A stretch of 29,019 nt of DNA from a virus. Its lineage: Duplodnaviria; Heunggongvirae; Uroviricota; Caudoviricetes. Position numbers: made by a program. Position 1 is the first letter of the stretch; the number at the start of each line of letters is the position of its first letter. The stretch is taken from IMG/VR virus record IMGVR_UViG_2579778660_000004, positions 1 to 29,019 of that record; one strand, 5' to 3'. Of this stretch, positions 15,001 through 18,000 are shown in pieces.

Positions 15001-18000
15001 TCAATTTGTTTATCACGAATGATATCTTGACGTAGTTCAGCAAAATGCAGCTCAGTATCAGCAACTAACAGCTCCTCTCTGGATAAAGGAGTTGGGTATT
15101 TTTCTGAGAAGGGGCTATTGTCCTTTTTCTGATTTGTGAAAATTGTTTGTAATTTTGCTACGTCTTCATCGGTGATTCTATAAATAGAAAGTAATCGATT
15201 CCCGCTAAAAATTAAACCTTTCCAGAAATCGTCGATTCTATCTTTTAGGTCGGGATTATGCTGAACTACACTATTTACACGTTCAATAAAAAGGGGTAAT
15301 CCTTGGGCCGTTACACCCAGTGATGAACCAAGAAGCTTACGGGTGTTGCGCCAGCCAAAGCGTGAATTGATGTTTTTTACTGTTTGCTCAAGCATTAACA
15401 CTTCCTTAATTTTTCCTTAACAATTTAGGGTGCTAAACTTCTTTGCGCAGTTTACACAAAAAAATAGTGCGTACGCAAAAACTATCTAACATGATGAGCT
15501 TTAACCGGGAAATTTGTATATGTTGTGAGCATAAAGTTGGCTGAGAAATCTAAAACGGGTCGAATGACTACGGGTGCTTGAGGCTATCTGCCTCGGGCAT
15601 GCCACCAAAGGCCGATAGAGAAAAGTCCCAGTTAACATTACGCGTCCTGCAAGACGCTTAACATTAATCTGAGGATATATCTATGACTTGCACCTATAGG
15701 TTACCTCTTACGTGCCGAAAGGCAAGGAGAAGTGGGCTATGAAGCAGCAAAAGGCGATGTTACTCGCTCTAATCGTCATCTGTTTAACCGTCATAGTGAC
15801 GGTACTGGTAACGTGGAAAGACCTCTGCGAGGTGCGAATCCGAACCGGTCAGACGGAGATCGCTGTCTTCACAGTTTACGAACCTGAGGAGTAAGAGACC
15901 CGGCGGGGAGAAATCCCATAAGCGCTAACTTAAGGGTTGAACCATCTGAAGAATGCGACGCCTCGGTGCCTCGTTAAGACGATGCCTCGCGTTCTTCAAT
16001 TGCGTTTTGTAGGCTGTCAGGGATACTGTCCCACGAATGGCCACCTGTAAGCTCCAGATGACCATTTTTGTTATTCTCCACAACGAGTTAGTTCTTCTTT
16101 TCGGATCCGGCACTTCTGGGGGGGAAATCCAGCGATGGCTGGATTATGTCGTCAATTAAAAATGCGGCGAGTAGATTAGCAAATATCCACGCTTTCGCGA
16201 GTTCAGGTTCCTTTGCACGCAAAGCATCCAGGTGCAGCAAACTTTTGAGCCGCTTAAAAGCCAGTTCAATTTGCCATCGCAGACGGTAACAATCAGCCAC
16301 TTGCTCTGCTGAATATTCATCTTCCGGTAATGATGTTAGCAATAGCACATGGCCCACTGCTTCCAGCGCTTCCGCCTGAACTACTCGTCCTTTTCGACGA
16401 TTCTCGCTGAGCAGTCGGGTTTTACTGATTAATGCTTTTTCGGGAGGAAGTGATACGGCAATGAGACGTGCCGGAAAGGGAGCTCCGGCTTTTTTATTAC
16501 CTGAATTGCCTATCATTACAGTGGTTTCACCGTTCTTACCGCAATCCAGCCCGCGCAGAAAACCCATCATGTCAAAGCGCATTCCTTCTGCAGTTAACCA
16601 GCGCAATCCTCGCCAGTGAACCCGGACGATATAATCAGCTTCTCCAAAAGCAAGTGAGCGGATACATTCGGGACGCGAACCGAATCCCCGGTCAGCAATG
16701 CGTATCTCGTCTGCCGTTTGCGCAAATCGGTCCAGCCGTTCAGCGTCTCTGCTGTCGGTTAGCTCAAAATCAGTGAACTGACAGGTATGAGGATCATATC
16801 CCATATGTAGTCGCCATTCAGCGCTGCCGCCCCCGGGCGCACTGATTGCTGTTCCATCGACAAGACGCAATCTCTTTCCGCTTGTACAACCCGTAACTGC
16901 GGCGCGTACAGCAAGTGTTTGTGCGGCAAGTATGCCAAACCAGTCGGCGGCATTCCGCAGCCGCTTCAGGAGAGCCACGTCAGATAATGTTGCAACGTCA
17001 TGGAGCTGAGCCCATGCAGTGACTTCACGTAATGACATCCCCCCGGGGCCGTAAGCCAGCCCCAGACGTAGCAGAGTTGCAGCATCACGAATTTCGCGGC
17101 GGCGGGTTAGAGCCCCGGCATTACGTGCCGAAGTATCCAGTTCTTCGGGCTTACCAATATGGGCCAGAATTGCTGACCAGTTATCGTGAGAGTAATTCAT
17201 CGGCACGTTAAATCATATCAGGCGTAATACCACAACCCTTAAGTTAGCGCTTATGGGAGAAATCCCCGTCACCTCTGATGTGTCAGGCATCCTCAATGCA
17301 CCCGATTTTGCCCCTCTCGATATTTTGTTTTTAATTAATAAATATTATTAAACAGAATGTACAATGTCATAATGTTCTCATTGTTGTTTTTTATATCACG
17401 CGCAGTTTACCTTGTATTCTTAATTTATATGTTTTATATATTGTTGTGTTTTCTTGGTTATTGCCTCATGTGAAATATTAATTAGAATCCTTTGGGCTTG
17501 ATTTGCGCGCAGGGAGAAGATGGATGGCCCCCGTAAAGGGGAACGCTATTTACCTGGAAGGATTCTAATGAAGAGTTTTGATAAATTGCGTGAAGCTTTG
17601 AGTGAAAATGGACTCTATGCGGTGCGTATCGAAAATGGAGAAATAATTTACACAACTGTAATCCCGGAAGATCATATAATTTTATCTGTTGAAGCTTTTA
17701 TCGAATACATTGAAAGGATTGGTTTTAAGGTCATACGGGATTGAGTTATAATCTATAAGCCAGCCTGAACAACTGGCAACCTACAGCGCCATTGGAGAAT
17801 GCAATGGCGCATATACAACTGGTCAAACAAACATCTTCTGGATTACTTCTCCCGGCGACACCGGAGAGTTGTGATTTCCTGCATCAAATAAAGATAGGTG
17901 AGTGGATACACGCTGATTTTAAGCGCGTTCGTAACTACGCATTTCACAAGCGTTTTTTCAAACTCCTGCAACTCGGATTTGATTACTGGACTCCGGTCGG

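Follow-up and report, generated by a model that had tools for sequence, protein, structure and literature searches.

What becomes of a hok-family toxin locus when an insertion sequence (IS) settles directly behind its toxin gene is the question raised by the DNA analysed here, a stretch of 29,019 nt from a Caudoviricetes virus record (IMG/VR IMGVR_UViG_2579778660_000004, positions 1 to 29,019; hereafter the window), in which a complete IS186 lies just past the stop codon of an intact hok gene. A first-pass annotation had suggested that the insertion could truncate or replace the fold-back element at the 3' end of hok mRNA, or could provide transcription outward from the IS. In our reading, which we hold with good confidence, IS186 in the first hairpin of the hok 3' untranslated region (3' UTR) displaces the fold-back inhibition element (fbi) and probably disables delayed killing by the locus. 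The structural part of this reading, comprising the anatomy of the locus, the target motif, the empty site, the displaced fbi and the recurrence of the arrangement, is close to certain. The functional outcome, in which the transcript ends inside IS186 and function is lost, is moderately probable by extension of the plasmid R1 paradigm and of the K-12 gef locus.

IS186 in the hairpin behind hok

As the first-pass annotation had it, the open reading frame (ORF) of 51 aa at 15739-15894 is intact, and IS186 begins at 15917, 22 nt past the stop codon at 15892-15894, a placement that proved exact to the base (the spacer occupies 15895-15916; Table 1). The Hok product, MKQQKAMLLALIVICLTVIVTVLVTWKDLCEVRIRTGQTEIAVFTVYEPEE, matches Pfam HOK_GEF (PF01848) with an E value of 3.3e-20 (71.8 bits, cut-off 22), as befits a small hydrophobic toxin of this family, and the RefSeq protein WP_001774828.1 is annotated identically in IS-bearing and empty-site strains. 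The inserted element agrees with IS186A of Escherichia coli K-12 at 1337 of 1339 positions and ends in perfect terminal inverted repeats of 23 nt (CATAAGCGCTAACTTAAGGGTTG), and its transposase, which matches PF01609 with an E value of 1.8e-26, differs from K-12 InsL1 by two substitutions and carries no frameshift. A perfect 12-nt direct repeat, GGGAGAAATCCC, brackets IS186 at 15906-15917 and 17255-17266. If the ends of IS186 are drawn at C and G, the target duplication amounts to 10 bp, GGAGAAATCC, which is the 12-nt repeat less its terminal C and G.

The pre-insertion site reads GGGGAGAAATCCCC, as seen in an empty-site allele (L002); the target is the GGGG-AGAAAT-CCCC stem-loop, which follows the stop codon as the first hairpin of the 3' UTR and precedes fbi. 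Mutation-accumulation data have defined the IS186 target as 5'-GGGG(N6/N7)CCCC-3', in either orientation, with a few dozen sites per K-12 genome (PMC5009759). The hairpin behind hok is an exact fit to this motif, with the core duplicated, and no second GGGG(N6)CCCC or GGGG(N7)CCCC is present in the window, against a chance expectation of about 0.2. As the hok hairpin both matches the motif and is the sole such site in the window, target specificity alone accounts for the position of IS186.

The window matches the E. coli STEC367 chromosome at 100% identity, and the same hok-IS186 junction occurs in four complete genomes, those of STEC367 (100%) and of STEC306, STEC307 and STEC308 (99.8%). With perfect 12-nt direct repeats around a complete IS186, and with an identical junction in four independently assembled complete genomes, the chance that faulty assembly or a chimera produced the junction is practically negligible. 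In addition, the 732-nt sequence obtained from the window by removing IS186 and one copy of the repeat was found uninterrupted, at 99.9% identity, in strain CFIAFB20190172, where the flanking genes are the same as at the IS-bearing locus. Since such a natural empty-site allele exists, the arrangement reflects true transposition into a pre-existing hok locus. The pairing of fbi with tac, the element at the 5' end of the hok mRNA, is kept in this allele, as are the Hok ORF, the mok start and the Sok region.

The displaced fold-back element and the fate of hok mRNA

The proposed separation of hok from its 3' fold-back element was confirmed by alignment with the empty-site allele and with K-12 hokC and hokE, in which fbi (17291-17303) falls beyond IS186. 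The comparison with intact loci, named by the first-pass annotation as the check on this point, revealed no complete hok 3' region upstream of 15917. The element now sits 36 nt past the right end of IS186 and 1,349 nt farther from the hok ORF than before the insertion, its distance from the hok stop codon having grown from about 45 nt to about 1.4 kb.

The consequence for the mRNA was examined by folding. In a reconstructed mRNA from which IS186 had been removed (15572-15917 joined to 17267 onward), the minimum free energy (MFE) structure closes nt 1-11 (GGGUGCUUGAG, 15572-15582) on CUCAAUGCACCC (17292-17303), whichever 3' end is chosen, and the predicted pair probabilities of this tac-fbi closing helix, the hallmark of full-length hok mRNA, are 0.9-1.0. 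The helix is predicted in the IS-free mRNA, whereas in the window as it stands it would need read-through of the whole of IS186; transcripts ending inside IS186 carry no fbi. When the 3' end was set at the junction, at 200 nt past the stop codon, at 644 nt, or at a terminator-like site at 16470-16489, the 5' end was predicted to pair locally with 15590-15603, and in the folds ending inside IS186 the Shine-Dalgarno/AUG region of hok is 85-95% paired. The site at 16470-16489, which is followed by a T run, is the sole plus-strand terminator-like site inside IS186 in a consensus scan. An ungapped search of IS186 (15917-17255) for a substitute fbi (CCTCAAGCACCC, at most two mismatches) gave no match; the same search also misses the true fbi, which has a 1-nt bulge and was recovered by folding.

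We propose that transposition of IS186 was directed by its target sequence to the hok hairpin described above. The promoter, the tac 5' end, the mok upstream ORF (uORF), the Sok region and the Hok ORF all remain intact. The hok transcript would then run into IS186 antisense to the transposase gene and would most likely end inside it, by analogy with R1 hok/sok and K-12 gef (hokC). Such a transcript, devoid of the tac-fbi helix, would not provide the stable, translationally inert, Sok-refractory full-length mRNA, and because this reservoir of toxin mRNA would be lost, delayed killing, either post-segregational or triggered by rifampicin, would be lost with it. Residual hok mRNA would stay under the control of constitutively made Sok.

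Several points weigh against this proposal. A hypothetical read-through transcript of 1,739 nt still pairs tac with fbi in its MFE structure, so the loss of fold-back hinges on termination inside IS186, which is suggested by the one consensus terminator-like site and by the analogy with K-12 gef. Moreover, no intrinsic terminator was found after fbi in the empty-site allele, whereas hokD of E. coli E2348/69 has one. Homology to that locus ends right after fbi, where E2348/69 carries the terminator hairpin AACCCGCTTCGGCGGGTT and the window has an AT-rich stretch (17304-17520) with no predicted terminator, which implies an undefined 3' end even for the pre-insertion hok mRNA. In addition, uninterrupted chromosomal hokA, hokB and hokC showed neither post-segregational killing (PSK) nor a response to rifampicin (bioRxiv 10.1101/2025.08.07.668861), and the locus may already have been inactive before IS186 arrived.

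The last two of these points also favour the chief rival explanation, in which the insertion is functionally neutral, such hok loci being already inert as killers and IS186 being present only because the hairpin is a hot spot; the exact IS186 motif, at the only such site in the region, is likewise what this explanation would lead one to expect. We nevertheless consider neutrality unlikely, given that the empty-site allele retains its tac-fbi pairing and Sok region as well as the mok start and its Hok ORF, and given that 3,456 of 5,426 complete E. coli genomes hold at least one hokD-like 3' UTR that is uninterrupted through fbi, which argues that the regulatory architecture is constrained. The loss of fbi might instead open the hok mRNA constitutively, like the 3'-processed active form, and make the locus more dangerous and strictly dependent on Sok. 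Loss of the 3' end from the R1 mRNA switches on both translation and Sok binding, and it is this behaviour that lends the idea its appeal. Here, however, such an outcome is improbable: the folds that end in IS186 give a local hairpin at the 5' end with the Shine-Dalgarno/AUG region paired to the extent noted above, the same arrangement is tolerated in K-12 and about 225 other genomes, and the K-12 hok loci are described as inactivated by insertion elements, with fbi disrupted (Pedersen and Gerdes, 1999, as cited in PMC7232551).

It has also to be considered whether the main effect falls on the neighbours of hok, either by outward transcription from IS186 into the nin and Q-like genes or by a polar block that parts the early region from the toxin and lysis genes and from the DUF1133 Q-like antiterminator. 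IS186 does lie between two Q-like genes and therefore could be polar on the second; it is also upstream of the pertussis-like and LT-II toxin operons, and it contains the plus-strand terminator-like site. The outward transcription once envisaged was not borne out by the promoter scan, in which no plus-strand promoter-like site appeared near the right end of IS186 and overall counts were not above those of shuffled sequences. As the end that faces downstream is the 5' end of the transposase gene, which is transcribed inward, and as the idea of polarity is purely conjectural, a main effect on the neighbours is very improbable. The displacement of fbi, with probable loss of delayed killing, remains our preferred account of the insertion.

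Recurrence of the insertion and comparison with known hok loci

The same arrangement, in every case with perfect 12-nt repeats, was found in three further, independent contexts: a related prophage whose downstream module differs (L007), a different prophage (L009) and a hokD-like allele at the dnaJ-nhaA locus (L010). A junction in the same orientation, that is, a hokC/hokD-like locus contiguous with this IS186 end, is present in 182 of the 5,426 complete E. coli genomes, and the opposite orientation in 43, which gives about 225, or about 4%, for both orientations. An fbi homologue occupies the same relative position in E2348/69 hokD, K-12 hokC, L007 and L009; it is also present in L010, but is unused in the MFE structure of that locus. 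Across the reconstructed loci, tac-fbi covariation was uninformative, tac being invariant in hokC/hokD-like alleles, and hokE alone shows a candidate compensatory change, noted by eye and uncounted.

Comparison of L009 (~3320-3362; the prophage hok of Z1323PEC0011) with L010 (~3305-3348; the dnaJ-nhaA hok of HS-01) revealed identical 45-nt hok-side flanks beside IS186 and different far-side flanks, a pattern suggestive of exchange of alleles among hok loci or of recombination between them mediated by IS186. In strain SY3626 (L008), IS186 is located after rem at another site of GGGG-N6-CCC type, outside the hok hairpin, and this case was excluded from the hok-hairpin events.

That the junction recurs in about 4% of complete genomes, in either orientation and at several loci unrelated to one another, could be taken to mean that the post-stop hairpin of hok is a standing trap for IS186, whose capture would be a recurrent and positively selected disarming of prophage and chromosomal hok modules; in the LT-II prophage, it might also be polar on the Q-like antiterminator and dampen induction-linked expression of toxin and lysis genes. 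We offer this as a speculation of low probability. Recurrent capture of this kind may reflect selection or may simply follow from the target motif.

The insertion has well-known counterparts in K-12 MG1655, whose annotation places IS186A 19 nt past hokC and IS186B 18 nt past hokE, and alignment puts the insertions of the window, hokC and hokE at the same point of the hairpin, between GGCGGGGAG(A/T)(A/G)ATCCC and ATAAGCGC. The pattern of the IS-interrupted K-12 loci, with the IS outside but near the ORF and splitting it from the 3' fbi, is also that of the window. Like K-12 hokC (gef)/sokC-IS186A, the window has IS186 inserted 19-22 nt past the stop codon of hok, within a GGGG-N6-CCCC hairpin, in the same orientation (transposase convergent with hok) and with a 12-nt direct repeat; IS186A separates hokC from its fbi (CTTCAACGCACCC) and terminator, just as the fbi of the window lies beyond IS186. 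The two loci differ in that hokC is found in the dnaJ-nhaA intergenic region and the present locus in the nin region of a Rac-family prophage, in that HokC has 50 aa and the present HokD-like toxin 51, and in that mokC is fused in frame to hokC whereas the 19-codon mok uORF here stops on the hok AUG. Furthermore, the terminator hairpin after fbi is kept in K-12 but has no equivalent in the window allele. With K-12 hokE/sokE-IS186B the window shares the point of insertion within the hairpin (there 18 nt past the stop codon), the 12-nt direct repeat and the displacement of fbi, which in hokE extends to the terminator, whereas in hokE the IS186 has the opposite orientation and the Hok protein and leader are more divergent.

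Among loci that are uninterrupted, hok/sok of plasmid R1 has in common with the window the Hok/Gef peptide, the RF01794 leader, a mok-type ORF, a predicted antisense Sok region and the tac/fbi helix, which is predicted here in the reconstructed mRNA; R1 hok/sok, however, is an experimentally shown post-segregational killer, whereas the present locus has its fbi 1.35 kb apart. The closest relatives (~93% at the nucleotide level) are hokD (relF, Qin) and hokD-type loci of lambdoid prophages, such as that of E2348/69, which have the same tac and fbi; E2348/69 hokD differs in being uninterrupted and in having a terminator hairpin after fbi. K-12 hokD itself is not known to have an upstream regulatory region.

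The event is thus an ordinary one, the same well-documented IS186 event as at K-12 hokC and hokE, where IS186-interrupted hok is already documented, and the window holds another copy, from a genome that RefSeq already contains. It matters little outside annotation, being one more natural case of the IS186 hot spot behind hok genes. The hok/sok of the LT-II/pertussis-like-toxin prophage should be annotated as IS-interrupted and probably non-functional as an addiction or abortive module, despite the intact Hok ORF. Nevertheless, the matched natural alleles of STEC367 (with IS186) and CFIAFB20190172 (empty), which are 99.9% identical around hok, are convenient for studies of the role of fbi in prophage hok, a question that reaches to chromosomal hok loci in general.

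The hok leader and the prophage context

The 173-nt leader matches Rfam RF01794 over its full length (91.7 bits, E 1.4e-19, gathering score 59); this family is named 'sok' and in practice models the hok leader together with the Sok-target region. The putative hok promoter was assigned by its place, 6 nt 5' of the Rfam-defined mRNA start, and by alignment to the -10 hexamer of K-12 hokC (TATAAT); a consensus promoter scan did not call it. The conserved 3' end of the predicted Sok region would be GGGACTTTTCTCTAT, and its predicted promoter region resembles that of K-12 sokC (-35 TTGCCT as against TTGACC), with an 18-nt insertion in the window relative to sokC.

Table 1. Features of the hok locus and of the IS186 that interrupts its 3' region, in window coordinates.
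Feature	Position	Strand	Remarks
Putative hok promoter	15537-15565	+	-35 TTGGCT at 15537-15542, 17-nt spacer, -10 TCGAAT at 15560-15565
tac element (hok mRNA 5' end, GGGUGCUUGAG), partner of fbi	15572-15582	+	First position of the RF01794 match
hok mRNA leader, including Sok target region	15572-15744	+	Rfam RF01794
Sok antisense RNA region, predicted	15615-15691	-	K-12 sokC annotation mapped through alignment
mok-like upstream ORF, 19 codons	15683-15742	+	ATG aligns with K-12 mokC start; frame read from sequence
hok toxin gene	15739-15894	+	ATG start, 51 codons (51 aa), TAA at 15892-15894, intact; read from sequence
Left half of split GGGG-N6-CCCC hairpin, with left GGAGAAATCC copy (15907-15916)	15905-15916	+	Direct repeat
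IS186 (IS4 family), complete, CATAAG...CTTATG	15917-17255	-	1339 bp; terminal repeats at 15917-15939 and 17233-17255
IS186 DDE transposase (InsL)	16088-17200	-	370 aa, intact
Right GGAGAAATCC copy, then CCCC half of hairpin	17256-17265	+	Direct repeat
Displaced fbi element, CCTCAATGCACCC	17291-17303	+	Complementary to 15572-15583, one bulge

The mok-like ORF ends at a TGA that overlaps the hok ATG (ATGA), and it neither overlaps hok further nor is fused with it. The frame is unfused here because of a 1-nt deletion (TTA-CC versus TTAGCC), which sets the ORF apart from K-12 mokC and E2348/69 hokD, in both of which the upstream frame is fused to hok; the empty-site allele has the deletion too. 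Translational coupling of mok and hok is plausible at this locus. Within hok, the Tyr47 codon TAC (15877-15879, plus strand) is retained in a UACG context, the motif in which A-to-I editing by TadA recodes Tyr to Cys in hokB, hokC, hokD and hokE (bioRxiv 10.1101/2025.08.07.668861).

A Rac-family LT-II prophage carries the hok/sok module in its nin-like region. RefSeq annotation places a Rac-family prophage, with intR, xisR, ralR, recT, recE, kilR, ydaT and ydaV, beside ttcA. A full-length RalA antitoxin small RNA (1557-1735, plus strand; RF02694, 218.7 bits) adjoins ralR and, consistent with that annotation, assigns the window to a Rac-family prophage at ttcA. Downstream of hok and IS186, two AB5-type toxin operons are encoded on the plus strand (19620-20838 and 22192-23332), one with a pertussis-S1-like/scabin-like A subunit and a B subunit, the other with LT-II A (PF01375, E 6e-130) and LT-IIB (PF06453, E 7e-76). 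These two operons fit the LT-II/pertussis-like-toxin lambdoid prophage of Jobling (2016; cited in PMC5917428). The Q-like antiterminator genes that flank hok and IS186, also on the plus strand, are located at 12727-13248 and 18690-19232 and match PF06530 and DUF1133 (with weak PF06530), respectively.

Between the Q-family antiterminator and hok, three minus-strand ORFs (197, 142 and 365 aa) occupy 13245-15401, and the 365-aa ORF has no Pfam match. A defence-system identity for these ORFs was considered and rejected, as they gave no Pfam or PADLOC match save one weak hit to PDC-S54 (E 0.0014). They resemble a cargo (moron) block that accompanies hok in several prophages.

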